Below, in pieces: positions 505 to 51,014 of a DNA stretch of 64,000 bases (the first letter of the stretch is position 1; each line of letters begins with the position of its first letter). A program made the position numbers and the translations under genes. This DNA comes from Myxococcales bacterium (GTDB taxonomy: Bacteria; Desulfobacterota; Binatia; HRBIN30): positions 1-64,000 of the forward strand of contig JBBILD010000013.1 in NCBI GenBank assembly GCA_037445065.1, read 5' to 3'. The notes beneath the pieces were generated by a model. The model did no database searches. It was given only the letters and a program-made list of their open reading frames with translations, and was not told where the DNA came from.

Positions 505-2640
505 TCAGCCACCGGACCCGAGCAGAGCAGCAACGTTACGCACCACCTCCACGTCCGCCTGGCGCAACAGTTCCGCCCTCTCTTCAGCGCTCGTAAACGC
601 GTGTTCGAACGCCGCCCGGACCAGAGACAGTGTCTCCCACAAACTGAGGCCACCGGCCATCCGTGCCGCGCGGACGTATTCGCTCGCCAGGTCGGTGCGG
701 CTGATCCCGGGGTTATCCGTGCAGATCACGACATCGAGCTGGAGCGAGCGAAAGTAACTGCGCAGCGGGTATTCCGGGTAACCCTCCGTGTGCGGCTCCT
801 CTGGGTCGTAAAAGCCGACCACCTCGACGTTGCTGGTTGGGCATAGCTCGATGGCAATGCCGCGGTCGCGGAGGCGCCGTGCCAAGTCCGGGCGCGCGTC
901 GAGCGTCAGGCCATGCCCCACGCGTTCCGCGTGCAGGCGATACACCGCCTGCCAAATGTTTTCTGGCGGTTCTCCCTCGCCAGCGTGAATGGTCACGGGT
1001 AAGCAAGCCGCAAATGCAGGTTCGAGCGCTCGGCAAAGCGCATCGAAGTTCGGAGCACTGGCCTCGTCGCCAGCAACATCGAACCCGACAGCAAAGCCTT
1101 TGAAATCCTGCGCTACTTCTGCCAACCGGCGAATGGTATCCGACGGCTCCGACGCCCCGTGGCCATGCCTGCGGTCGAGGACAAACAACAAGCGCAGGCG
1201 CGGTTGGTGCAAGAGGCCGCTCTCGGCCTTACGCACTGCCTCCGCAAAGAGGCGGACGAACCGCGAGCCTTCGCCCCGCAAGTATTTTTGCGGGCTAGCG
1301 CGCAACTCGCAGTACACCACGCCATCTCGTGCGAGGCGGCGCAGCGTCTGGCGGGCGTACTCCTCGATTGCCGCTTCGCGCTGCAACAACGCGGAGCCAG
1401 AGAGTTCGCCCGGTAACTCGTAAGCGCGGAAGCCACCGCGCTCGCTGGCGTTGCGGAGAGCCAAACGCGGCTCCGTGGGCACGAACAAGCGCGCTTCGAG
1501 TTCTTCCTCGCTCATATGGACCAGGATTGCTGCCGCAGCCTCAGAACGATTGGCGAGACGACGCAGGCGCTGCCACCAGTCCTCTGGCCACGGCAGCTCG
1601 TGCAGCCACGGCACGGCTTGCTTTGCCCGCTCTCGCTCTGCGCGGGTGAGGCTATCCCACAGGGCTCTGGCCACCTCACGCTGCGCTGGCAGGTCCAACA
1701 CGCCGCCCAAGTGGCAGTGGAGTTCCGCCTTGGGCAGCGCCCGCAACCAGTCGCGGTGTTGCGGTCCGAGCGGAGTTTTGCGCAGGGTCTCGATCTGCAG
1801 CAACGGCAAGCGGTACAAACCGTACCAATTCGGTCTGGCCTCCTCCGCGAGCAGACGCTGGATGTGCCCGGCGAACACCTCGGCCTTGCGCTGCTCACGC
1901 TCCAAGAGGCACTCGACCAGCGAGCTCTTGCCCGGCTCCCAGTCCACAACCTGCCAAGTTTTCCCCGACCGTTCGGCACGGCCATCCAGAGGGAAGTCCA
2001 CAGCCGAGATCCGCGGCCACGCTTGCGCACTGGCGTACAAGAGGTCCGAGGGGGCGAACGGGCCGAGGAAGACTGGGAAGAGATGCGCAGCCAGCTCAGC
2101 GGAGAGAGGCCCAGCAAAACGCTCTGGGGTGGGGTTGCGCAGTTCCTCGGGTAGCCGCCCGCCGGCGTCGAGGACATGCACGCAAGCGGCACAGCCGAAC
2201 CAGGTACCGGCCCACTGCATGTCGGCACTCATCGTTTTGCGCCCGCCAGCCAGGCTCAGCACTGTCCGCTCCGGCCCCACTTTCTCGGTCGCATGTGCCA
2301 CCAAGCGGAAGATCAGTTCGCGAATCGTGGCGCACTCCTCCGGCGTTGTCAGATCGCCCGCGGCTACTTTCCAAATGCGTAGGGGCGGGGGATCCGAAAG
2401 CAGAGCCCAGCACTCGGCTAACTTCGTTACCGAGTCCTCCGTGCCGCGGGTGGTGGCGATCCAGACTTCGTTCGGCCTTACCAGGCGGCGGCGCTCCACT
2501 TCAGCGCAAATCTCAGCGCGCTTAGGATGGTGGCCGTATAGGTCGAGAACATCCGGCGCCACCAATGCCAAAACCTCCGGCACCACCGCCCAGGTGGTAC
2601 CAAGCGTGCATACAAGGACACCACCGCTATTCGCTGGCAT
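505..2640 (-). CDS. cad1: CARF-adenosine deaminase fusion, type III CRISPR effector (Cad1/CAAD-like)
   Basis: N-terminal NE0113-like CARF domain (VCTLGTTWAVVPE...SLAGGRKTMS) and C-terminal adenosine-deaminase barrel (ELHCHLGG, YCELR, GFDVAGDE, TIHAGE, RVGHG, IELCPTSN, CTDNPG). Start set at ATG 2640 behind a GGGGAG SD. Last gene of the cmr operon. Confidence 0.88.
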   Translation of the reverse strand: MPANSGGVLVCTLGTTWAVVPEVLALVAPDVLDLYGHHPKRAEICAEVERRRLVRPNEVWIATTRGTEDSVTKLAECWALLSDPPPLRIWKVAAGDLTTPEECATIRELIFRLVAHATEKVGPERTVLSLAGGRKTMSADMQWAGTWFGCAACVHVLDAGGRLPEELRNPTPERFAGPLSAELAAHLFPVFLGPFAPSDLLYASAQAWPRISAVDFPLDGRAERSGKTWQVVDWEPGKSSLVECLLEREQRKAEVFAGHIQRLLAEEARPNWYGLYRLPLLQIETLRKTPLGPQHRDWLRALPKAELHCHLGGVLDLPAQREVARALWDSLTRAERERAKQAVPWLHELPWPEDWWQRLRRLANRSEAAAAILVHMSEEELEARLFVPTEPRLALRNASERGGFRAYELPGELSGSALLQREAAIEEYARQTLRRLARDGVVYCELRASPQKYLRGEGSRFVRLFAEAVRKAESGLLHQPRLRLLFVLDRRHGHGASEPSDTIRRLAEVAQDFKGFAVGFDVAGDEASAPNFDALCRALEPAFAACLPVTIHAGEGEPPENIWQAVYRLHAERVGHGLTLDARPDLARRLRDRGIAIELCPTSNVEVVGFYDPEEPHTEGYPEYPLRSYFRSLQLDVVICTDNPGISRTDLASEYVRAARMAGGLSLWETLSLVRAAFEHAFTSAEERAELLRQADVEVVRNVAALLGSGG

Positions 2641-2881
2641 GTTCTCCCCGATCTCGTGTGCCGTGTCTGCCGCGCGCCGGACGTGAACCCACCGCGCGAG
2701 CCTCCCCTTGCACCTTTCCACTCACTGCGCCCTGCACCTCGGTTATCGCGCTCATCCTTCGCCACGCTGAGCCGGTTCCGGCAGCGGCAAATGCCCCCTT
2801 GCCGTCGGCCCCCTCGCACGAGAAGGAAGAACCTCTCGCTTCGCTGTTCGTTTGCACGCTGGCTCGACCGCCCATTTTCCC

Positions 2882-3769
2882 TCACACGTTGGAAAGCTCG
2901 AATCGCCCAAAGCCAAACGTGGTCGCCTTGCCGATTTGCGCTTTGGCCCCAAAGACCAACCAGGGCCAAAGCTGAGGCAAACCGGCACCTTCGAGTTCCA
3001 CCGTACCCATCAGCCCTGGCCACTCCATCCTGCGCCGCTGAGTGGACGAGAAACGGCGCACCCGCACCATCCGCAAGTCAGCCCGCATCGAAAGCGAGGC
3101 GAGAAGCTCGATCGGAAGCGCGACGTCTCCATTCGGCAAGCCTTGCAAGCGAGCGAGCAAGGCTGCGCGTCGCTGGATGGCTTCGAAGAGCAGTTGCGGC
3201 GAGAGGGACGAGGCCACGCGACCTTCGTTTTTGATCCGGGTTGGGGTGACAAATTCGAGCCGCGCTCGTGTTGAGGGCTGCAATTCCTCGGGTTGCACGC
3301 ACTCCACAGCTTCGAGTTCGAAGGTCACGCGGTCGCGCCGCTTACCGAAGCCAATGCGGCCCGCGCGACGGAGCGCACGCTGCAACGCCGGCCAAACTTC
3401 GCGCACACGGGGCGTCGCCACCAGCCGCAAGCGGAGCGTGTCCCCTGGTTGAAACAAACACGGACTACCGTTCCGCGGCAGAAACGGAGGCTCAGGCGAG
3501 ATGGCAAACGGCCGCGGTGGCTCGGTGGTCACCCCCAACTCGCGCAGCGCAGGGTCGCCGCTGGCTGGCGGGTCGAAGAGCTGCGGATACGCACAGCTCT
3601 GCTCAACCGGACAGCTCCGGCAGGTCTCGCGGGCTTTGGCGACGCAAACGCCATGGTACAAGGCTTGGCCGAGACCACCGTGGATGGCGGTGGTGACCAG
3701 CGGCGGCAAGCGCCCGCTCGAGCGCGCGACGTACACGATCTGCCAGAGTTCCAAGCGTGGGAGTTGCAT
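2882..3769 (-). CDS. cas6: CRISPR pre-crRNA processing endoribonuclease Cas6
   Basis: C-terminal Gly-rich loop GKATTFGFG, FVTPTRIK, and an N-terminal Cys cluster (CVA..CRSCPVEQSCAY). The ATG at 3769 overlaps the cmr1 stop (TGATG). Confidence 0.88.
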   Translation of the reverse strand: MQLPRLELWQIVYVARSSGRLPPLVTTAIHGGLGQALYHGVCVAKARETCRSCPVEQSCAYPQLFDPPASGDPALRELGVTTEPPRPFAISPEPPFLPRNGSPCLFQPGDTLRLRLVATPRVREVWPALQRALRRAGRIGFGKRRDRVTFELEAVECVQPEELQPSTRARLEFVTPTRIKNEGRVASSLSPQLLFEAIQRRAALLARLQGLPNGDVALPIELLASLSMRADLRMVRVRRFSSTQRRRMEWPGLMGTVELEGAGLPQLWPWLVFGAKAQIGKATTFGFGRFELSNV

Positions 3770-4902
3770 CACCTCGCCTGTGCGAATCGTGACAAAAACT
3801 GCGCGAGGAGTCGCTCGCCACCTTGCGCCTCGTATCGCCGGTTTTCGCGCGGACCTCTCAGTTCGATCGCGGTAGTCGGAACAAACGGACCGTCCGCCCG
3901 CCACGCCAGCGCGTGCCACCTGCCTGCGATCTGCACAACGCGGAACTGCAAGCGAGAGGCAGACCGGTTCCAGCCCCTGAGGTTCCACAACCCGGCCCGC
4001 CGGAAACGAATCGGGAGGCCGAAAGCGGCAAGCAGCTCTGGCTTGTGAACACTCCCCTCGGCGCGGAAACTCTGAAACTGCCTACCTGCGAACTTTAGGC
4101 ATTCGAACCAACTGACTTGTCCATCCGCCCGCAGCACCGCGTGGGGCTGATCGTGCACTGGCTGCCCGGAGAGCTGGATCCGGAACGATCCCGGCAGGTG
4201 CTGGTGGTGTAGGCCCTCGGCATCCGCCGCAGGAAACCAGTTGCGGATTCTTTGAAAACCTTGCTCGAAGCGCGTCTTCCACTCCTGGGGCGAGGTGGCT
4301 CCGTGGGCGGGACGCAGCTCCTCGCACTCCGGCCAGCCTTCCCATTTGACCAGGGCGATGGTCCCGAAGCCGCGCCGCGAGCGGGTACCGAGGCCACCGA
4401 GGTGGCCGAACAGCCACAGCGAGGCAGCCCAGGCGCGGCGCGTCACCGTGGCCGGGTCGGTGCCCTGCGGGACCCAAGCGAACGGATCTTCCTGCCTGCA
4501 CCCCTCTTTCTTCGGCGTCCACTGCCAGCTCAGGGTCACCGTGAAGTCCTGACCTTCCGGAACAGCGCGGCGGTCGTTCTGGCCCAGGTAAAGCGTGTAA
4601 CCGAGGTACGCGGCACCGTTCTCTCGTGCCGCGGACGGCGCGAGTTGGTCCCTGTACGATTTTTCATCTCTGATCCAGTGACCTAAGCCGAGCCGGACGG
4701 GGGAAGACGCGCCGTTCCCCGTGGTCGCTCCGAACAAGTCTGCCTCGCGCTCCGCAAAAGACGGGTCCAACGCGCGGTACCACCAACGCAAGGCGCCGCG
4801 CAGACTGAACGGACGGATCTCTGCCGTTTTGGTATCGTTCGGCGCCGCGCCGCCGCAAAACACCGGGGTTACGATGTGCATGGTTGCCTGTAGCTTCTGC
4901 AT
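3769..4902 (-). CDS. cmr1: Type III-B RAMP protein Cmr1
   Basis: TPVFCGGA..EIRPFSLRGALRWWYRA, LFG, GGLGTRSRRGFG and FGLPI motifs. Confidence 0.92.
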   Translation of the reverse strand: MQKLQATMHIVTPVFCGGAAPNDTKTAEIRPFSLRGALRWWYRALDPSFAEREADLFGATTGNGASSPVRLGLGHWIRDEKSYRDQLAPSAARENGAAYLGYTLYLGQNDRRAVPEGQDFTVTLSWQWTPKKEGCRQEDPFAWVPQGTDPATVTRRAWAASLWLFGHLGGLGTRSRRGFGTIALVKWEGWPECEELRPAHGATSPQEWKTRFEQGFQRIRNWFPAADAEGLHHQHLPGSFRIQLSGQPVHDQPHAVLRADGQVSWFECLKFAGRQFQSFRAEGSVHKPELLAAFGLPIRFRRAGLWNLRGWNRSASRLQFRVVQIAGRWHALAWRADGPFVPTTAIELRGPRENRRYEAQGGERLLAQFLSRFAQAR

Positions 4903-4906
4903 GGAA

Positions 4907-6103
4907 TCATTCCTTCTTCTTGAGGAACGAGCCCAGCGAACCGTCTGGCCTCAACTCGACCTCGAATTTCTGCTTTGCATTGCGGAAGTTCGCTAGCTGA
5001 CCCTGGCTCAAGCCGGATCTTTGCAAAGCCTGTTTCAACGAGACCTTGATCGCCTGCCCCGCTCCTTCCTCCGACAGCTCCAACTCGTCCGTTTCCTGGT
5101 TCCAAGACCGAATCGTCGCAACGAACTTTTTAGCCTCGACTACCGGGGCTACCGAAGTTGGTTGCCCGGAGGCAGTTGTTGCCTGGGCTGCCTGCTGGCT
5201 CAAACTTTCCGCTCCGGGATTCGGGGCTGGCGAAGGCTTGCCAAACACCCCGTAACCGGAGGAGGTCTTGGCACGTGACGGTAGCTCTCGCACCCGGTGA
5301 CGTGGCTGTTTGCCAAACACCCCGTAACCGGAGGAGGTCTTGGCACCGAGTCCCCACTCCTGCAGGCCCTTCTCCAAATACTCGAGCGCGCGTTGCAAAT
5401 GTTCCCGCGGTGCGCGGCGGTCGCGCAAAACGAGTGCGATCTCGAACTGGCTACCCGGGGCGATGCGCAGGAACGGCAGCGGAACCGGGTCCTCGCAGTC
5501 ATGGGGGATCGGACTCTCCCCCTGGTAGTATTTTGGGTGGTGCGGGCTCATCACCTCCAGCTCGAGGCAGGCAGCTTTGAGGGGGATGCCATCGAGAAAG
5601 TCCACGGCACCCGCGTGGCCCTTGTCCCCACCCTCGCCGAACAGCTCCAGTACCTCAGGGGCAGGCTCCTCTACCGAGCAGCCCAGCTCCCGGCACATGG
5701 CATGGCGAGCAAGGCCCTTCAGGCCGGATCCCGGCAGGTACGGCAGGCCGTACGTGTGGTGCAAACAGAAGCCCAATTCCAGAGGCGTCGGTGCGGCAAG
5801 CCACAGCACGCAAGGCGTTTTCGCCTCTACGATGAGCGGGTGGGCCAGGTCGCCCAGGCATTTGAGGCCGTCCCTGCGCCGCTCGCTCCAGGCGCGGGCG
5901 AGATCTCGTAACTTCCCCAAGCTGCCTGCGACCCGCTTGTAATGTTCCTGCCGATGCGGAACCAACCGCTCTTGTCCGCCGCCATGCCTGACGTCCCAAA
6001 CGACGAATTTGCTCAGTTCGAGTCCGGGGTGGACGGCAAGTGTGGTCCTCGCTTGTTCCACAATTTGCGCAGTGCTCTGGGGGAGACACTCCAACGGCGG
6101 CAT
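4907..6103 (-). CDS. cmr6: Type III-B RAMP protein Cmr6 with duplicated G-loop and C-terminal extension
   Basis: LHHTYGLPYLPGSGLKGLAR, ELEVMSPHHPKYY, DPVPLPFL and GLGAKTSSGYG motifs; AGGAGG SD upstream. Confidence 0.92.
   Translation of the reverse strand: MPPLECLPQSTAQIVEQARTTLAVHPGLELSKFVVWDVRHGGGQERLVPHRQEHYKRVAGSLGKLRDLARAWSERRRDGLKCLGDLAHPLIVEAKTPCVLWLAAPTPLELGFCLHHTYGLPYLPGSGLKGLARHAMCRELGCSVEEPAPEVLELFGEGGDKGHAGAVDFLDGIPLKAACLELEVMSPHHPKYYQGESPIPHDCEDPVPLPFLRIAPGSQFEIALVLRDRRAPREHLQRALEYLEKGLQEWGLGAKTSSGYGVFGKQPRHRVRELPSRAKTSSGYGVFGKPSPAPNPGAESLSQQAAQATTASGQPTSVAPVVEAKKFVATIRSWNQETDELELSEEGAGQAIKVSLKQALQRSGLSQGQLANFRNAKQKFEVELRPDGSLGSFLKKKE
5238..5346. repeat. Perfect 37-bp direct repeat flanking a 35-bp unique insert inside cmr6
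   Basis: TTGCCAAACACCCCGTAACCGGAGGAGGTCTTGGCAC occurs at 5238-5274 and 5310-5346; the insert is 5275-5309. The net gain of 72 bp keeps the frame. Confidence 0.95.
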
Positions 6104-6291: not shown

Positions 6292-6636
6292 TCAGCCCCC
6301 GGCCAGCTCCACTTCGGCCACGCGCTTGAGCCACTGCGCCACAGCCAAGGCGCGCCGGGTCTTCTCGCGGAAGCGGCTGGCGTCTCCGACTAGCCACTCC
6401 ACCCGCTCTGTAACGTTTTTTCCTCCCAGCACGTAAACTGCCAACTGCTTCGCCAGCTCTGGGCTTTTGTCGGCGTAAAACAGGAGCGTCTGCGCCAGAC
6501 CCGAAGTTTGGATGTGGCTCGGCAGCTTGCGGATGTGGCTCAGCAGCTCCTTTCGATTGTTCGTCGCCTGCTTCAGTGTGCGGATCGTTTGAACCGCCCA
6601 CTCGGCGTCGCGTCGTTCTTTGTGCACGACTGCCAT
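6292..6636 (-). CDS. cmr5: Type III-B small subunit Cmr5 (Cas11)
   Basis: 114-aa helical protein with LPSHIQTSGLAQTLLF and AQWLKR..E motifs, located between cmr4 and cmr6. Confidence 0.9.
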   Translation of the reverse strand: MAVVHKERRDAEWAVQTIRTLKQATNNRKELLSHIRKLPSHIQTSGLAQTLLFYADKSPELAKQLAVYVLGGKNVTERVEWLVGDASRFREKTRRALAVAQWLKRVAEVELAGG

Positions 6637-6655: not shown

Positions 6656-7603
6656 TCACGATGGCCAAAGCTGCAGCCGGAAGAAGCCGCGGCCGATGGT
6701 CTCCTTGCCTCCGAACTGGGCGAGCGGGTTGTTCGCTATCAAGTCGCGAACCCACGCCCAGCCGCCACCGTTTGGCATCGCCGCTGGCTCGTTCTTGCCC
6801 TTCAAGGCCGCCGCCAAGCGCCGCGTTTCCAACCCCAGTACGCTGTAAAAGAGGGTATCAGCGGGCACGTACTCCTCGGTCCAAAGGGCACCTTCCTGAA
6901 CTGTTTTCTTGTCGGTCAGTCGCACGCGGGTGACGATTTCGGTGCAGTGCAGCGCGAGATCGGCAAAGAGCGCGTCCGGCAGGACGACGAGGTTTTTCGG
7001 TAGCAGTTCCCGCCAGTACTTGAGTGGATCTCCGGGCAAAAACTGCTCGCCCAGCACACGCGCCAAATCTTCCGCGGTACCCTTTTCGACCTCTACTTCG
7101 AGTTCCTCGATCAGCGCTTTCTCGAGCGGAAACTTCGCGCTCACGCGAGCCTTCTCGGCACCCATTCCCTCGACCGCCTTGCTTACCGCCGCAACCAGCC
7201 CCTTGGCTGCCTCCCCGCCCGTTTGCTGGAGGTCGCGTTTGAGCCGCTCGAGGAGGTACGGACAGGTGGTCCACGCAAACGGCGCTCCCACACTACGCAC
7301 GGGAAGGAGCAGAAGGCGGGCATCGCTCACCACCAGAGACCCGGCCTCGAGTGCCTCTCCGCCCGCACCTTGCGGCGGTTCGCTACCGAAGAGGAGCTTC
7401 GTGACACCCTGTTTACCATTGGTTTGCTCGCTCAAGTCGCGCAGCACACCCTTCACGCCCGAACCATGAATGGTTGGGTACCGCGTGTGGCGCTCGCGCT
7501 GCACGGGCAAATCCACTGCGCCCAGCTCAGCTCCGCTGCCCGCATGCACCGGCGTTTCTGCGAGCATGACGAGCAACTTCATCTCGAACACGTTTCCTGC
7601 CAT
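6656..7603 (-). CDS. cmr4: Type III-B backbone RNase Cmr4 (Cas7 group)
   Basis: TPVHAGSG..GAVDLPVQRERHT (catalytic Asp present), GSGVKG, DARLLLLPVRS, LWTEEYVP and QFGGKETIGRG; start ATG 7603 with AGGAGG SD. Confidence 0.95.
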   Translation of the reverse strand: MAGNVFEMKLLVMLAETPVHAGSGAELGAVDLPVQRERHTRYPTIHGSGVKGVLRDLSEQTNGKQGVTKLLFGSEPPQGAGGEALEAGSLVVSDARLLLLPVRSVGAPFAWTTCPYLLERLKRDLQQTGGEAAKGLVAAVSKAVEGMGAEKARVSAKFPLEKALIEELEVEVEKGTAEDLARVLGEQFLPGDPLKYWRELLPKNLVVLPDALFADLALHCTEIVTRVRLTDKKTVQEGALWTEEYVPADTLFYSVLGLETRRLAAALKGKNEPAAMPNGGGWAWVRDLIANNPLAQFGGKETIGRGFFRLQLWPS

Positions 7604-7614
7604 TGCCCTCCTCC

Positions 7615-8760
7615 TTACGAGTTTACGGCTCCTACCAGACACACACCGAACCCAGCCGCTTTTTCAGCTGAATCGGAAGCCACGCTCCGCATGTGAAACC
7701 GCTCCAAGTCGTTGCCACCCACATACGCCACGGTGCCGGCCGGGTAGTACGTGCGCAGCGGGCGAGGTCCCACCTGTTTCTGCCCATCGTGGGTGAGTTG
7801 CCAGCCACCGATGCGCACCGCACGCCCCGCAGCAACAGCGTGCACCTGCAAGCCTGCATTTGTTAGCGCCTCGATATCCTCCGGCCGCACCGGTGAAAGA
7901 AACAAGAGGCGAGCCTGCGAACCCAGGCTCTTCGGGGCGGCGGGGATTAAATCTTCTCGATCACAGGAGCGGATGCTCACCAAGTGCCCATCCGCCCCGA
8001 GGCGCATACAGTCGGCGTCGAGCTTCTCCCACGGCAAGCCGTTCGGCTCGATCACCGGAACGAGAATGGTTCGCCCCAGGCCGAGCGCCGTCATCTGGCG
8101 CACGTAAAACCGGCCTTCGCGGACGGTGTGCCGCTCCGGCTCCAACTGAATGCCGATACGCAACTCGAACCCGTAGTCGTTGCCAGCGGCACCGCTTTTC
8201 TCCTCGCGGACCTCGATTTCGTCTTTTCCCTCCAGCCATTCCTGTAAGAGTTTTCCGCTGAAGGAGCGCACACAAACGCTCTTCGTCGGATGCGCTTCCG
8301 TCAGCGGGGGGCAGAGAAGTGCTCGGCTCGCCACCAACGAGCACGCGCTGCCCTGCGGTAGCCGCTCACGGTCCAGCAAGCGCAAGCGGCGCAGGACGAG
8401 GCGCTTGCGTGTGCCGCCGCTCTCAGTTTCCTCGTAGCTCAGCACGTCGGCGGGCACCGGCCAGCGAAGTTCGCTGCCGCCGGCCCTCAAGAGCGCCGGC
8501 CCGATGGCAAATTTGGCGGGGCCGTCCGGCTCCCCCACGGCAGCGCGCACGGCACGCACTTGTGGATCGCCACATTGCTTCTGTGCGTAGTCCATCACCG
8601 CCACACCCTGGGCTTCCACCAAGGCGCCGCGCAGGGCGCCGAGCAACGTCCACGGCGGTGGAGGCCACACGCTCTGTGCATGCACCACGCCCGCAACATC
8701 GAACGGGCGTGCATCGCGCACGGTGAACACGTCCACAGGCGTCAGCTCCAAAAACTTCAT
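7615..8760 (-). CDS. cmr3: Type III-B Cmr3 (Cas5 group)
   Basis: PVDVFTVRDARPF..PPPPWTLLGALR, RIGI, LGADG, IGGW, PAGTV and GFG; ATG overlaps the cas10 stop (ATGA). Confidence 0.92.
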   Translation of the reverse strand: MKFLELTPVDVFTVRDARPFDVAGVVHAQSVWPPPPWTLLGALRGALVEAQGVAVMDYAQKQCGDPQVRAVRAAVGEPDGPAKFAIGPALLRAGGSELRWPVPADVLSYEETESGGTRKRLVLRRLRLLDRERLPQGSACSLVASRALLCPPLTEAHPTKSVCVRSFSGKLLQEWLEGKDEIEVREEKSGAAGNDYGFELRIGIQLEPERHTVREGRFYVRQMTALGLGRTILVPVIEPNGLPWEKLDADCMRLGADGHLVSIRSCDREDLIPAAPKSLGSQARLLFLSPVRPEDIEALTNAGLQVHAVAAGRAVRIGGWQLTHDGQKQVGPRPLRTYYPAGTVAYVGGNDLERFHMRSVASDSAEKAAGFGVCLVGAVNS

Positions 8761-11700
8761 TCTCCTCCCTCCCGAGCCAAAAAGGCAGCAGCCGTGACCA
8801 GTTCGCTCCACTGGAGGATGGCAGCCTCGACGCGCGCGAGCTGTTCACTTGGCGGAAGGTTTTCGAGATCCGGCTTGACCCCCTCGCCCAGTTCAACGAG
8901 CAGAGCAGAGGGGGAAGGACCGAATCCCTGCCGCGCCCCCTCTTCCTGCACTTCCCGCCTGTGCGCAACTCGCCGCGCCAGAGTACAAGCGACCTCCCAG
9001 AGCCTCGCCGGCTCCGCGGAGCCGCGCACCGATGGCTGGTGCCACGGATGTGGGCCGAGCAGCGGCGCGAGTTCGGCACGAAACAGGGAGGCCAGCCGCG
9101 TGGAGGCCTGCCCGTTTTGGAAGGCGTGGATCAGGTTCTGAAATGCATCCAGCGCTTTCGCACCCTTCTCAGTTGCCTGTGCCGACTCGCTCCTATCGGG
9201 TCGGCTTCCCGGAAAAGGCACGAAGCACTTGGTCCTCGAGCCAGAGCGGCGCTGAATGACGATTCCGAGCCGATTTCGACCGTGCTTCTTCGCCTCTTCG
9301 AGCGCCTCGCGTGCGGCACGCAGGGCGGAGCCCAATGGCCAGCGATAGTGGAACACGCACATACCTACCGAGGCGGTAGCGTTCCACCCGAAAGCGAGGC
9401 CCAGTCGGTCTACCTCGGACGGATCGTTCGCTGGCCACACCATACCCTGTTTTCCGAGAGAGGCCGCGACCCATGGCGCGTACGATGCACCTTCTTTCTC
9501 CGCAAACGAGCCCGGATGACCCGAGAAGCGCAAGCGCAAGCGGCGCGCAAGTTCGACCGCCTCCGGAATCGGGCAGAGAAAGAGTGCATCGTCACCCCCG
9601 GCGTATACCAGGTGACCAGGAATGTCCTCGGCCTCGATCGTCAGCGGCGCGGTAATGCGCGCGAAGGCGGCAGCGGTGGCACTGAGAGCGGCGTGATAGG
9701 CCGGGGTCACGGGCCGCGGAGTTTCGCTGATCTGCTTCAAATTGGGATAATTCTTCTCGAAGGCGGTCCATACTTGACTGTGCAAACTCGCCCCGAAGTG
9801 CGGAAAGCGCGGGTGAGTGCCGTTGAGCCACTTGCCCAACTCGTCACCGTCGAAGGACAGCACCGCCAAGTACGGCCGCGGGGGTGCGATCCCAGCTTCT
9901 TTCGCCGCGCGGCGCAACCGACCGGCCGCCGCTAAGAGCTCTTCCGGCACTTTCTCGGAAACTTCCTCGCGCGGGAACGGCAGCAGCCACTGGCCGTCAA
10001 TCTTAGCAAACTTCCTCAACCACTCCTCGCTCGAGCGGGTGGCAACATCAATCAAAGGAGCACAGTAAACGGACAAATCTCCTTTCTCGATCGCCTCTCT
10101 CTGCTGCGCCGTCTCCGCTGCTTGGACAAAGTCGCGGACCGCATCCCGCAGCTCCTTGAGCGCTTTCTCTCTGCCTGTTCCGCCTGCTGCAGCCAACCCG
10201 CGGCAGGCCTCGACCACCGCGAGTTTGAAGCCCGACGCGGCGATCTCCCCAGTCGAGGGCTGCCGGCCGAGCGCCGAGGCTTCGGTCTCTTCGAGTTCGA
10301 AGTGCCGCTTCGCAGTACACACGCCGCAAAGCTGTTCGCCTTCCTTGAGTACGTTCTGATCTTTGCGGCGGCTGTATCCCTCTGTACGCTGGATCCAGAA
10401 ATCCCCGGGGCCCAGCACTTCACGCTCACCGCACACCGCGCACTTGAGGCCACCTTCCAGCGGCAGCGTTCGGCCGGCGTAGCGTTCCTGTTTGGCGGCA
10501 AGGACGAGCATTTCCCCTTGCTCGAACACGTCGGCGTACAACACACCGGCATTCGGCTCGTAACCCAGCTCTGCCGCCCGAAATGCGTTGGCGATACGCA
10601 GACCGCGCCGCGCGTGCGCCTCGCTGCGGTGCCACACGGCCGGCGACTTCGACCACGCTTCCGGGTCAGCTTGCAAATCCCAAGGGGCAACACTCCAAAA
10701 CACTTCGAGCATCGCCTCCGCTTGGCGGCGTGCCCGCTCCTCGTACTCGCTGCCTGAGCCTGCGGCCGCACCCGCCTTGCCAGCCAAATCAACCCACCAG
10801 GTTCGCACGCTCTCCGCGCAGCGACGCGCGAGGTCCTCGGCTTGTTGCAGGGGCACGATCGCGGTGAACAAGTTTGGCAACGTCGGTACTAGCAGGGCGC
10901 GCGGCAAGTGGCGCAGCGCAGTCGCCAGTACCGCGCCGAGTGCGCTGTTGTTTGCCTCAGTAACGCCCAGTTCCTCGAGGGGCTTTGCCACCGCCGAATC
11001 GGCAGCGCTGGGGCTCGCAAAGGAACTCCCCGCCTTGGGAAGACCGAGTTGCTGCAAGAGCCAGCGGTCAAAGCGCGGCTCGAAGTACAACGATGGGTAA
11101 ATCACGTGCTCAGGTCCGAGTTCGTCGACCACCGGCAACATCGCTTGCCAGGTCAGTTCGGCGAGGAGGGAGGAAGAAGACCACAAGTCGCTCAGTTTTC
11201 GCGAGGCCGCGATGAAGTCCTGCACCGGACCGATGGCGACGCGCAGCAAGGCGGCCCCCTGCTCCCGCAACAGCAGACTTGCCAGAGCCGCTACCAGCGA
11301 AGTGTGCACCATCACCGGGTGATCGGGCATCCTCGAATCGGCAGGAAGAATTTCCCACAGCGTTCCCAGGCGGAAGCGGCGCGCCTCCTTCTCTTTCTGT
11401 TTCCGTTCGATTGCGCGAAGGAGGTCCGGCGTAAATCGCCACAGGACCAAAAACAGGAGGCGCGGGTCGCTGCTCAGCGGCGCCACGACGTCTCTCAGCT
11501 TCTCGAAAAGCGTATGCAGTTGTTGGACTTGTTCCTCCGTGACCGCCAGTTGGAAGGCCGTTCCGGTGACCGTACCCGGAACCAAGATGGATTCACCTGC
11601 GAGGGGGTGAACGATTTCCATCTCGCTTTCCGGGTTCACGGCAAACGCACGGAGCCAAGCGTGCCGGTCTGTACCGCTGGCAAGGCGGTCGGCCTTCTTC

Positions 11701-11852
11701 ACGCACTCCCACAGGCGATCCGCGACCGTCCCCACCAATTGCTCGACGAATTCTCTGCCGCGCTGCTCATGCCCCTCGAGGGTCCAGGGCTTGTGCGGTG
11801 GGTCATGAAACAACGCTGCGATCTTGGCCTTGAAGAGTTTCTCGTCACTCAT
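8757..11852 (-). CDS. cas10: Cas10/Cmr2 large subunit with HD domain and GGDD Palm cyclase
   Basis: N-terminal FHDPPHK / ADRLAS / PADSRMPDH (Cmr2 HD type), IGPVQDFIAASRKLSDLWSSS, zinc finger CAVCGER..LCGVC, FDGDELG and YAGGDD. Confidence 0.96.
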   Translation of the reverse strand: MSDEKLFKAKIAALFHDPPHKPWTLEGHEQRGREFVEQLVGTVADRLWECVKKADRLASGTDRHAWLRAFAVNPESEMEIVHPLAGESILVPGTVTGTAFQLAVTEEQVQQLHTLFEKLRDVVAPLSSDPRLLFLVLWRFTPDLLRAIERKQKEKEARRFRLGTLWEILPADSRMPDHPVMVHTSLVAALASLLLREQGAALLRVAIGPVQDFIAASRKLSDLWSSSSLLAELTWQAMLPVVDELGPEHVIYPSLYFEPRFDRWLLQQLGLPKAGSSFASPSAADSAVAKPLEELGVTEANNSALGAVLATALRHLPRALLVPTLPNLFTAIVPLQQAEDLARRCAESVRTWWVDLAGKAGAAAGSGSEYEERARRQAEAMLEVFWSVAPWDLQADPEAWSKSPAVWHRSEAHARRGLRIANAFRAAELGYEPNAGVLYADVFEQGEMLVLAAKQERYAGRTLPLEGGLKCAVCGEREVLGPGDFWIQRTEGYSRRKDQNVLKEGEQLCGVCTAKRHFELEETEASALGRQPSTGEIAASGFKLAVVEACRGLAAAGGTGREKALKELRDAVRDFVQAAETAQQREAIEKGDLSVYCAPLIDVATRSSEEWLRKFAKIDGQWLLPFPREEVSEKVPEELLAAAGRLRRAAKEAGIAPPRPYLAVLSFDGDELGKWLNGTHPRFPHFGASLHSQVWTAFEKNYPNLKQISETPRPVTPAYHAALSATAAAFARITAPLTIEAEDIPGHLVYAGGDDALFLCPIPEAVELARRLRLRFSGHPGSFAEKEGASYAPWVAASLGKQGMVWPANDPSEVDRLGLAFGWNATASVGMCVFHYRWPLGSALRAAREALEEAKKHGRNRLGIVIQRRSGSRTKCFVPFPGSRPDRSESAQATEKGAKALDAFQNLIHAFQNGQASTRLASLFRAELAPLLGPHPWHQPSVRGSAEPARLWEVACTLARRVAHRREVQEEGARQGFGPSPSALLVELGEGVKPDLENLPPSEQLARVEAAILQWSELVTAAAFLAREGGE

Positions 11853-12056: not shown

Positions 12057-13160
12057 CTACACGAAGCGAATCTTCGCGGGAGCGAGCTGGAGGCCATACA
12101 GCCGCCCGCCTTTGTCGCCGACCCGAACAATGGCGTACGGCTTGGCTGCTTCACCCAGTGCTTGTTGGAGGGCTGCGGCGATGTGGCTCACCTCCGGGCG
12201 AAAGTTGCGTTCGCCCCAGCGGCCGGCTCCCACCGCGAAGGACTGCCAGCTCTTCATGAGATCGCGCAGCCGGTCTGCAAACGAAGCGGCAATCTCCTTT
12301 GCAGGCAAAAAGCACTGCTCGCAGCCGGGGCACTCTTGCCTCGTTCCGTGCGCCAGGCGCCTCTCCGCGAGTAGCCAGTACATGCCCAGTTGCAGGGGGC
12401 TCAGCTTAATGGCCTGCCCGGCACAGGACAGGAGTCGCCTACCCTTGTTGATCTCCACATTCGGCTCGAGCAGAGCCGCAAGCCGAGTTTGCAAGCGTGC
12501 CACCAGCTCGCGAAACGGTGCGTTGCTCCATGAGCGATCGTTGCAGACCAGGCGCAGCCGCGGGAACGGAAGGTCGGCCAGATCCACGCGCACCTCGGTG
12601 CGCGGAACCGAACGCGTGCCAGCGGCAGTGCGTACCTTCACGACCTTGCCGCCCTTTGGCGGGAAGAAGAAGTCGGAGCTTTCGAGTTCGGCGGGCTGCA
12701 CCAACACGTGCGAAAGACGGTCGTTGGGCCGACCGCACAAGATCATGGCGGACGCAAGCAAGTAGCCCATGGTTTTGCGCCCGCCCGCAATCGAAGCGTG
12801 CAAGGGCGGTTCGAAATCCGCCGTGTACTTGCGCACCAGATCCAGGATGAACTCTGCCGCCTGCTCGCTGTCCGCAGTGGTACGCAGGTCATCCAAGGCT
12901 GCTCCGTTGGCCGCAGGGAGCAGTAACACGTTTTCCTTAGCGAGGCGGAACCGTTTTGCCTTCGGATACGCTTTTTGCAGTTGTGTCCACGCTGCCCCCT
13001 TCCCCAACAGGTCGCGCACGATCCTCTCTTTCCCAACGGTAGTGGTGATGATCACGACATCGGTCTCCGGTGGGCGCAGCTCGGACACGCACAGAGCGTA
13101 GACCGTTTCTGTAACGATTTGAGGTGTCGCTCCAGCAACAAAGAGCAGTCTCCTCTCCAC
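12057..13160 (-). CDS. NE0113-family CARF protein (putative cOA ring nuclease) with C-terminal wHTH-like domain
   Basis: VAGATPQIVTETVYAL, ITTTVG, LHASIAGGRKTMG, DRLSHVLV and LADLPFPRLR match the Cas_NE0113 pattern. The C-terminus resembles an OmpR-type wing (IKLSPLQL...RLYGL) and has a CPGCEQC insert. Start set at GTG 13160 behind GGGAGGAGG. Confidence 0.82.
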   Translation of the reverse strand: MERRLLFVAGATPQIVTETVYALCVSELRPPETDVVIITTTVGKERIVRDLLGKGAAWTQLQKAYPKAKRFRLAKENVLLLPAANGAALDDLRTTADSEQAAEFILDLVRKYTADFEPPLHASIAGGRKTMGYLLASAMILCGRPNDRLSHVLVQPAELESSDFFFPPKGGKVVKVRTAAGTRSVPRTEVRVDLADLPFPRLRLVCNDRSWSNAPFRELVARLQTRLAALLEPNVEINKGRRLLSCAGQAIKLSPLQLGMYWLLAERRLAHGTRQECPGCEQCFLPAKEIAASFADRLRDLMKSWQSFAVGAGRWGERNFRPEVSHIAAALQQALGEAAKPYAIVRVGDKGGRLYGLQLAPAKIRFV

Positions 13161-13951
13161 CGCTGCGCCTCCTCCCGGCGTGTGCGAGCGCTTTACGTTG
13201 GATCGGACCTGCGAGTCAACATGCGCTGCCAACTGCGCACGAATTTCCCGCCAACGAGCAGTGGCGAGGTACCGCTCCGGCACGGCCTCCACGGCCCAAC
13301 ACGCACCGGTTCCAGGTTCAACCGCTTTTCGATTTCTCCTGGCGTTGGCCGTGAAAATCCGGCCACCGGCGTTCTCCCACGCAGTTCGAAAACGTTTCTT
13401 GCGCGCTCTGTAGCGCCGGGTTATAGGTGGGAGCCCGATGTTCCTCGCTCGCTCAATCCGGTGCCGCGCTAGCCGTAGTGAAAAGTCGCTATGAATGTCC
13501 TGGGTAACACATGGCGCTGGCGTTTTGGTTGGCCGGCTTGGCGCTCCACCCAGCTCCGGGACTCAGGGAGCACTTTACCGTCAGTTTGCGGCCCTTCCAG
13601 AGTCCCTTCGGCCCACATTGAGGGGATTGCAGCCAAGGGCCCAACCGTTCCGCAGGTTGTAGCTGGCCACCTGATCAAGGCACCGGGCAGCGATTCGAGG
13701 AACGACCGGGTGCTACGTTTTTCTGCGCGGTACACCGATTGGGGGAAGCGTGGCGGCACAGAGGACATCGGAGCGGCGCGCTCCTACCCCACGCGGTGCG
13801 GTTTGATCGGCTGTAAGAATCCGATGGGCTCGGACGAAGACATTACGACTGCTGGGATACAGGATCGAGACAACTCGAAGAGCTCTCGAGCGAGGTCGGT
13901 TCTGCCGTCCGCCCTTCCCTCTCGGTAACAAAAAAAATGAAGGAGGAGGTA

Positions 13952-14586: not shown

Positions 14587-14852
14587 CGCGCTCGCTGGGG
14601 CGAGCCTCGGCTCTAGCTGCGCGGTTCGATTCCTCGAGCACGAGGCACCTCCCCGGAAAGTCCGGGAGAGCTAGTGCTGCGCAGCCAGCTTCTGTTGCGG
14701 GAGCCGAGATGTCCTGATCGTACGGAGGCCAAACGCGAACAGGATCGCAACCAGTGTGGGGTGGTTGCGTTCACCAAGGAGGCGCTTTCCGCGGGCTGCC
14801 ACTGAGCGGTAACCGGCGGCGTTTTTGGGCCCTCATTCGACCAGCGAGCGTG
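14587..14852 (+). ncRNA. Putative structured RNA (nested multi-stem fold)
   Basis: Closing stem 14587-14598/14841-14852. Internal stems 14606-14613/14701-14708, 14616-14625/14676-14685, 14632-14645, 14652-14666, 14711-14745 and 14746-14769. G-U pairs favour the + strand. Confidence 0.4.
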
Positions 14853-14940: not shown

Positions 14941-15048
14941 GCTCGATTCCTTTGTCGGGCTCCATGATACCGGGCGCAATTGATTCCCCCCGTAAGACCT
15001 ATCTCGTTAGGTGCTCGGTCCCTTTGTCGCGCTCCATGATTCTGGGCG
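14941..15048 (-). CRISPR. Degenerate two-repeat CRISPR-like mini-array (36-bp repeats, 36-bp spacer)
   Basis: Repeats 14941-14976 and 15013-15048 are 31/36 identical with 72-bp period. The minus-strand consensus ends ...GAGCCCGACAAAGGGAYCGAGC. The spacer is 17/36 GC, lower than its surroundings. Confidence 0.5.
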
Positions 15049-49827: not shown

Positions 49828-50210
49828 GGGACTCTCCCTCCCCGGAATGTGAACCTCATTCTACGCGACGACCTGCCCAAGGAAAGCGGATTTTTTGCCC
49901 CCAACCCTTCGGCGAGCGCATCGGAGTGCTCCGCAACCACGCATCCTCGCCGAGCCCGCCAGCGAAACGGGTGAGCTCTCAGGTTCGCTTGAGTTCCAAA
50001 CCGCATCGTCTTCCGTATATGGGTAGCAGGGCTGCCTGCGTCCGAGCGAGAAGATCCGCGGTATCAGAGCACGAAGGCGTGTGACAAAGCAGAAAACTGG
50101 GTTGCCGCGAAGATTGCCCAGCGCCGCCGCGTCCCTTCGCCAGGCCGCGGCCGCGATACGTGCCGAAACTCTGTCAGGGCGGCCCGCGCGCCGTGCACGC
50201 CCGACACCAC

Positions 50211-51014
50211 GGGCGGCCACAAGGGCCGCACGTACAGAGCCCAGGCGGCACCGGTGCCGGTGGCATGGCACGCCCGCGCCAAGGAAATGTAGGGGCAGGC
50301 CTTGTGCCTGCCCGTGTTGCAAATCGAACCGAATGCCCAAATGGTACCGCGGGCGGCGTGCGGTGTGTCACCACGACGCGGGTGTCCGCGCAACGCTGGT
50401 GCGGTGGGTGTCCATGCAACCAAGGCACGCTGCCACGGCCTCGGCCTGCCCGATCAAGGCCCCGTGCACGACCGGCACCACGGGCGGCCACAAGGGCCGC
50501 CCCTACATCCACGATCGAACCACCGTGCCGGCGGGTACGCCCATTCGCCATTCGCAATGCACCGCTCGCCGCGGGCACCCACCAGGGTGGGCCCTGCATG
50601 TCCGAGGGGGCACCGGTCTAGCGACGTGCCTCCGGGCGCCACCACAAGGTGGGTGTCTACGAAACGTGCACTCGTGCCGATGTGGTCGCACGCCATCGCC
50701 AAGGACAGGAAATGTAGGGGCAGGGCTTGTGCCTGCCCGTGCCGCGAATCCGACGGGATGCCGCATCGCAGGGTACCCACCGCATCAGGTCGTGGTGCGG
50801 CACGCCCGATCGGACCACAAATGCCGAATCGCACCACGGGCGGCCACAAGGGCCGCCCCTACACCACTTGGGGACGCGGTCCCGGGTCGGGGGCCCCATC
50901 GCAAAGTGGGTGTCCACGGAACGCGCGCACGTGCCGTACCCCCATTCACCATTTGCCCGGCCCACCGCTCGCTGCTCCCCGCTCGCTGTTCGCTCTTATA
51001 AGGGCCGCCCCTAC
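50211..51014. repeat. Cluster of GTAG-family REP palindromes (BIME/REPIN-like)
   Basis: GTAGGGGC(A/G)G(C/G)CCTTGTG(G/C)C(C/T)GCCC-type 25-mers at 50211-50235(-), 50289-50313(+), 50482-50506(-), 50714-50738(+) and 50838-50862(-). Degenerate copies at 50573-50597 and 50634-50660, and a half copy at 51000-51014. Confidence 0.85.

Follow-up and report, generated by a model that had tools for sequence, protein, structure and literature searches.

The cmr6 gene of a type III-B CRISPR operon contains an in-frame insertion of 72 bp, in which an exact duplication of 37 bp flanks 35 bp of unrelated sequence (positions 5238-5346 of the window, i.e. of the whole stretch of 64,000 nucleotides that was analysed). 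This insertion probably records a single, completed integration of a spacer at an off-target site by the CRISPR integrase Cas1-Cas2. Laboratory experiments have shown that Cas1-Cas2 can integrate off-target, but there is hardly any documentation of what this costs natural genomes and which traces it leaves in them. Under this interpretation, the cmr6 scar is a new case, found in nature, of a process that is known experimentally, and this clean, datable and in-frame scar offers a concrete site for the study of target choice by the integrase, with symmetric TGCCAA half-sites located 37 bp apart. A full-text search, with most subscription papers outside its scope, returned no report of such an integration scar within a cas gene or within any other coding sequence.

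The cmr6 gene and its 72-bp insertion

The gene cmr6 (4907..6103, minus strand) encodes a protein of 398 amino acids that matches the family model TIGR01898 with 113 bits (cut-off 51.1). Its assignment as Cmr6 relies on this score above the cut-off, on the fold and on the position in the cmr operon. The Cmr6 chains of the PDB match the window protein with E-values from 5e-23 to 6e-19, and the top matches recovered by Foldseek with the model of the window protein are Cmr6 subunits. The operon displays the type III-B order cas10-cmr3-cmr4-cmr5-cmr6-cmr1 and all its genes are on the minus strand (the strand of cmr6 was unstated in the initial annotation). The gene cas10/cmr2 is located at 8757..11852, cmr3 at 7615..8811 (ORF as listed; PF09700, 6.8e-40, with an NCBIfam match under its cut-off), cmr4 at 6656..7642 (ORF as listed; TIGR02580, 222.5 bits), cmr5 at 6292..6636 (PF09701, 1.1e-14) and cmr1, directly downstream of cmr6, at 3769..4902 (TIGR01894, 40.7 bits for a cut-off of 28.65). 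The true start of cmr4 is probably further in than the start of the listed ORF. On the same strand, a CARF protein of the Cas_NE0113/Csm6 family is encoded at 12057-13292 and cas6 at 2882..3988. With its 368 residues the window Cas6 is unusually long, and the recognisable domain is included in its C-terminal part (residues 244-362 with Pfam, residues 156-363 with TIGR01877). The cmr operon is closed by a gene (505-2721, minus strand) encoding a CARF-adenosine deaminase fusion of 738 residues, composed of a CARF-like N-terminal part (weak match with Cas_NE0113) and an adenosine deaminase (PF00962, 1.1e-41). This fusion presumably resembles the recently described CRISPR-associated adenosine deaminase effectors.

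Within cmr6, the two copies of a 37-nt direct repeat (5238-5274 and 5310-5346) are 100% identical, have a start-to-start spacing of 72 nt and are parted by a filler of 35 nt (5275-5309), the putative spacer, which has a GC content of 66% and occurs only once in the window. An exact duplication of 37 bp around 35 bp had been claimed in the initial annotation, and both its coordinates and the filler sequence quoted there were confirmed. The bases flanking the two copies differ on each side; the boundaries are therefore firm and the unit is exactly 37 nt long. Such an exact repeat of a 37-mer cannot be due to chance. Four families of direct repeats with copies at most 120 nt apart are found in the whole 64-kb window, and the pair 5238/5310 is the only exact one. 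The duplicated target directly abuts the unrelated insert with zero extra bases, as in a full-site product of Cas1-Cas2.

In the protein, copy 2 of the unit (5310..5346) encodes a first AKTSSGYGVFGK (residues 254-265), the filler encodes QPRHRVRELPSR, and copy 1 (5238..5274) encodes a second AKTSSGYGVFGK (residues 278-289), which gives the order ...EWGLG-AKTSSGYGVFGK-QPRHRVRELPSR-AKTSSGYGVFGK-PSPAP.... The filler contains no stop codon and the gain of 72 bp keeps the frame of cmr6, so that the frame preservation claimed earlier is found again in the translation of 398 residues.

A protein search with the window Cmr6 recovered 516 relatives; from the list of the best 120, the 19 best full-length sequences were aligned with the query. 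At the protein level, a single AKTSSGYG[VL]F and nothing matching the filler are observed in all 19 aligned relatives, the closest of which is 73% identical; the initial annotation had expected such a single copy with no insert. This closest relative among the best 120 of 516 (P0008) has 374 residues, exactly 24 fewer than the window protein, and reads ...GYGVFGKPSP... uninterrupted. The linker and the C-terminal domain that follow the second copy are conserved in 19/19 aligned relatives. As 0/19 relatives carry the insert, the 72 bp correspond to a lineage-specific in-frame insertion and not to an ancestral C-terminus. The scar-bearing protein is represented by one contig and one cluster member. 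A close relative genome is present in the protein database, with Cmr4 (P0127) at 94% and malate dehydrogenase (P0248) at 99%, both on one contig of 104,639 bp. Despite this genome, no Cmr6 more than 73% identical was found among the best 120 of 516 matches listed; in this genome, cmr6 may have been disrupted or replaced, or its product may have a length that the search did not cover.

An AlphaFold model of the window Cmr6 was obtained from an alignment of 20 sequences (mean pLDDT of 73). It comprises the RAMP core up to approximately residue 265, a region with pLDDT below 50 (residues 269-321) and a confident small domain (residues 325-395). The insert corresponds to residues 266-289 and lies mostly within the low-pLDDT linker between the two confident domains. 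The first AKTSSGYGVFGK, encoded by copy 2, aligns with the C-terminal motif GxGAKTxxGYGxF of the solved Cmr6 structures, whose chains stop just past this motif; according to the model, this first copy would be able to complete the RAMP fold. The alignment with the 19 relatives reveals that the linker after the RAMP core is already variable in length. Since it sits in a disordered, length-variable linker, the insert would merely lengthen this linker, and it is presumably neutral.

Other features of the Cmr6 family were observed in these sequences. Residues 325-395 (4907-5140 of the window, minus strand) constitute a conserved folded C-terminal domain of approximately 70 residues, present clade-wide after the disordered linker and absent from the aligned solved Cmr6 chains. 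No Pfam match and no usable match in the protein atlas were obtained for this domain. In addition, many Cmr6 relatives possess a Gly/Arg-rich N-terminal extension.

Target symmetry, unit dimensions and probable off-target integration

The 37-bp unit has the inverted ends TGCCAA...TTGGCA previously described: a perfect inverted repeat of 6 bp begins 1 nt in from each end (TGCCAA in positions 2-7, TTGGCA in positions 31-36), so that each end, followed inward on its own strand, reads N-TGCCAA. Of the 63,964 37-mers of the window, 66 (0.10%) contain a symmetric inverted repeat of 6 bp or more that lies no further than 2 nt from either end. Identical half-sites at a fixed distance suit a two-fold symmetric enzyme making staggered attacks. 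In an off-target integration, a prespacer of 35 nt would use its two 3'-OH ends to attack cmr6 at two identical half-sites, one on each strand and 37 bp apart (N-TGCCAA inward in both cases), after which gap repair would leave a copy of the 37-bp target flanking the insert on each side. The insertion is recent, as the copies are identical, and it would have survived owing to a length (72) divisible by three, to a stop-free filler and to a site at the end of the RAMP core, where the disordered variable linker starts.

Several properties of Cas1-Cas2 reported in the literature are relevant to this scenario. The palindromic motif that the repeat contains drives the binding of Cas1-Cas2 according to PMC5389526, where Nunez et al. 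are also cited for the in vitro integration by the Escherichia coli enzyme beside a non-CRISPR inverted repeat of a plasmid. The off-target sites of Pyrococcus furiosus Cas1-Cas2 are reported to have features in common with repeats (PMC6698737), and a type III-A Cas1-Cas2 is described as promiscuous without HU (PMC13769266). The target in cmr6 is likewise bounded by an inverted repeat, as in the in vitro integration related in PMC5389526, which makes promiscuity of the integrase plausible. However, the in vitro cases, as presented in PMC5389526, PMC6698737 and PMC13769266, are mostly half-site events on plasmids, whereas the product in cmr6 is a complete, repaired and inherited full-site event.

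The closest precedent in E. coli is the off-target spacer integration leading to neo-CRISPR loci (Nivala, Shipman and Church 2018, as related in 10.1101/148544, PMC7054753 and PMC6698737). In these accounts, as in cmr6, a target of repeat length is duplicated around an insert of spacer length at a site that is not a repeat. The experiments of Nivala 2018 are related as laboratory work with over-produced type I-E Cas1-Cas2. By contrast, the cmr6 scar is natural, fixed in an assembled genome, divided into 37/35 and in frame inside a cas effector gene. It also differs from the case related for Nivala 2018 in the integrase, no Cas1 having been found in the window.

Ectopic spacer acquisition within arrays has been described for Streptococcus thermophilus and S. 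mutans. In these descriptions, as in cmr6, integration occurs away from the leader-proximal repeat, but what is targeted there is a true CRISPR repeat that belongs to an array. An origin partly in off-target acquisition has been proposed for isolated or mini CRISPR arrays (Shmakov et al. 2020, as reported in PMC13142298). As reported there, the mini-arrays resemble the cmr6 unit in having two repeats and one spacer away from any array, but the cmr6 unit is inside a coding sequence and is translated.

The dimensions of the unit were compared with those of arrays located beside related cmr6 loci. From a scan of genome contigs, 10 such loci were used, the best of them 46% identical. Five of these 10 loci have an array next to them; its repeats measure 36, 37, 33, 37 and 36 nt (the last one in L010) and its spacers 33-42 nt. 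With such values, 37+35 is ordinary for these neighbourhoods, and the claim of the initial annotation that these are typical CRISPR dimensions fits the arrays beside related cmr loci. The two closest loci (L001 and L002) have no array within +/-10 kb. Scans for tandem repeats, Rfam families and direct repeats detected no canonical CRISPR array in the 64-kb window. No Cas1 was detected among the scanned window ORFs of at least 150 amino acids, and neither Cas1 nor Cas2 among the ORFs of at least 85 amino acids at 13.3-24.5 kb, the part of the window to which the scan for short, Cas2-sized ORFs was limited.

Beside the operon there is just one more near-range repeat pair, which is degenerate. 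It consists of two repeats of 36 nt (14941-14976 and 15013-15048; 31/36 identical) with 36 nt between them, and its period of 72 nt is the same as in cmr6. The pair is located 1.6 kb beyond the CARF gene, in a region where the ORFs look non-coding, and its spacer has a GC content of 47%. No match was found for this 36-nt spacer in phages or plasmids and no Rfam repeat family for the repeats, the only nearby Rfam line (E = 8.6, 14703-14751) being outside them. The region 14941-15048 may represent what is left of an array, or else a scar of greater age. The match of period noted by the initial annotation between this pair and the cmr6 unit holds for the spacing of 72 and does not extend further, as the repeats at 14941 have 36 nt, are 31/36 identical and share no sequence similarity with the cmr6 unit. 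When the cmr6 unit and its flanks were compared with these repeats and their flanks, no similarity (p from 0.49 to 0.99 against shuffles) and no common leader or repeat features were detected.

The filler has 8/35 and 9/35 identities with the 35 nt before and after the unit, respectively. It is therefore not a copy of the flanks and not the product of a tandem duplication, in agreement with the argument previously raised against a simple slippage. Nor is it an inverted or displaced copy of nearby sequence: in the surrounding +/-300 nt, both strands included, its best match has 19/35 identities, and the longest k-mer that it has in common with the window is of 11 nt, which is the mode for 200 random 35-mers of the window. 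No second copy was found in the 64-kb window with at most 3 mismatches. The filler has no match in phage records, and the eight plasmid records recovered all have E-values of at least 1, i.e. at the chance level. The search of the 35-mer proposed in the initial annotation thus gave no protospacer in the window, phages or plasmids. With a GC content of 66%, close to that of the genome (64%), the filler is not foreign-looking, a point against spacer acquisition. The off-target acquisition proposed by the initial annotation is consistent with the single copy in relatives, with a filler that does not derive from the flanks and with the fitting dimensions; the missing counterparts are a protospacer and, in the window, Cas1 and a canonical array.

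Repeat-filler-repeat insertions in other proteins

Homologues were scanned for exact internal repeats of at least 7 residues, located 8-60 residues apart. A clean repeat-filler-repeat organization was detected in 2 of 254 Cmr6 (query left out), in 1 of 120 Cmr4 and in 0 of 119 malate dehydrogenases used as control. In the first Cmr6 (P0019), the repeat VMSPHHPDYYQG surrounds the filler LHPLRARSAPRYP with a period of 25 residues (75 nt). In the second (P0101), the repeat GNLGLLYDKFF surrounds DQTDPVAADTFS with a period of 23 residues (69 nt). In the Cmr4 (P0186), the repeat EFIRDNVLPGD surrounds GKEKSDNRCGG with a period of 22 residues (66 nt). For each of these three proteins, the six homologues nearest to it lack the insert. 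Hits of low complexity were discarded, namely P0039 (7 residues, period 17), P0172 (periods 9 and 10) and P0459 (7 residues, period 19).

A fourth case was observed at the DNA level in cas10 of an HR30 relative (L001, 4526-4644), where an insertion of 25 residues has a period of 75 nt. This insertion is missing from the window and from L002; the repeat pair has diverged (33/44 identical) and displays a sharp 3' boundary. The same pair had been considered as a mini-array like that at 14941, a candidate that was rejected, the pair being inside cas10.

There are thus four extra lineage-specific insertions, each at a different site, with periods of 66, 69, 75 and 75 nt. Including cmr6, all the periods (66, 69, 72, 75 and 75 nt) have the size of a CRISPR unit. 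For the three further hits of the homologue scan, the probability of falling within 22-25 residues is approximately 4e-4 if periods are uniform over the 53 allowed values. The comparison of RAMP homologues (3/374) with malate dehydrogenases (0/119), a control family that is far more conserved, gives a one-sided Fisher p of 0.44. The counts are too small to show an enrichment in cas genes.

We tentatively put forward, as a possibility that we consider rather doubtful, that CRISPR effector genes are mutated again and again in nature by off-target integration, the integrase writing repeat-spacer-repeat units into cas genes close by. The cmr6 unit, the pair at 14941, the insertions of P0019, P0101 and P0186 and that of the HR30 cas10 would then be footprints of one process. 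If this were true, in-frame survivors would persist as insertions of 22-25 residues that duplicate conserved motifs, and the scars would constitute a readable record of the natural infidelity of the integrase and a route by which arrays and protein loops could newly arise. Should the four similar insertions have the same origin as the cmr6 scar, simple sequence scans could gauge how often the adaptation machinery damages or remodels host genes. Of these results, the possible recurrence among type III-B genes deserves the most attention.

Alternative origins of the insertion, and dispersed repeats

The duplication could also result from a CRISPR-independent error of repair or replication, in which templated or untemplated filler is added by a distant template switch and back, or by end-joining. 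Such an error would agree with the window, where neither an integrase gene nor a native array was found, and with the host-like GC content of the filler, which a sequence copied from another locus of this genome would show. However, no donor is present in the 64-kb window on either strand, and an error of this kind predicts neither the 37/35 split nor symmetric half-sites at the ends (0.1% of 37-mers), nor does it predict the narrow range of periods (66-75 nt) of the four other cases. We consider this origin unlikely. Transposition provides another comparison, since the insert is flanked by direct repeats of the target, as in the target-site duplications of transposons. The known duplications of this kind measure 2-15 bp and surround elements of at least hundreds of bp, a pattern into which 37 bp duplicated around 35 bp does not fit.

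An artefact of assembly or sequencing appears quite improbable. The contig is derived from a metagenome and the protein comes from a single contig and a single cluster member, which would be expected of an artefact. On the other hand, an A-B-A path (A being the unit and B the filler) needs reads over the two A/B junctions, and the window contains no further copy of B. Moreover, the frame is kept with no stop, and analogous insertions are present in four other independent records.

The initial annotation had proposed that the unit pair in the cmr6 mRNA forms a neo-array which, if cut by Cas6, could yield a guide or process the operon transcript. On the mRNA strand each unit is predicted to fold into a hairpin that its two ends close, with -15.6 kcal/mol (z = -2.1) and with 7 of 200 shuffles as stable, and the cas6 gene is located 0.9 kb downstream of cmr6. 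This hairpin, however, follows from the inverted repeat that marks the target. The unit lacks the features of functional arrays that were examined: it matches no Rfam CRISPR repeat family and resembles neither the repeats at 14941 nor their flanks. The filler has no target in the window and, the copies being identical, nothing has yet been conserved. Processing by Cas6, as transcript control or as source of a guide, found no support in these comparisons; it is very improbable and we expect no function for the neo-array. The recombinational capture of a new C-terminus, or a diverged tandem duplication of 72 bp, would account for the presence of two copies and for nothing more, and can practically be discarded: what follows the second copy, linker and C-terminal domain alike, is conserved in all 19 aligned relatives, GKPSP... 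continuing exactly as in P0008 (which excludes the scenario, raised in the initial annotation, of a 35-mer representing the ancestral 3' sequence of cmr6), and the identity between filler and flanks is at the chance level while the copies are identical at 37/37 positions.

Elsewhere in the window, dispersed repeats of 25-79 nt have the partly palindromic core GCGGCCACAAGGGCCGCC..., three of them within 700 bp (50188-50864) and one at 50-74. This GCGGCCACAAGGGCCGCC family may be a REP-like intergenic element.
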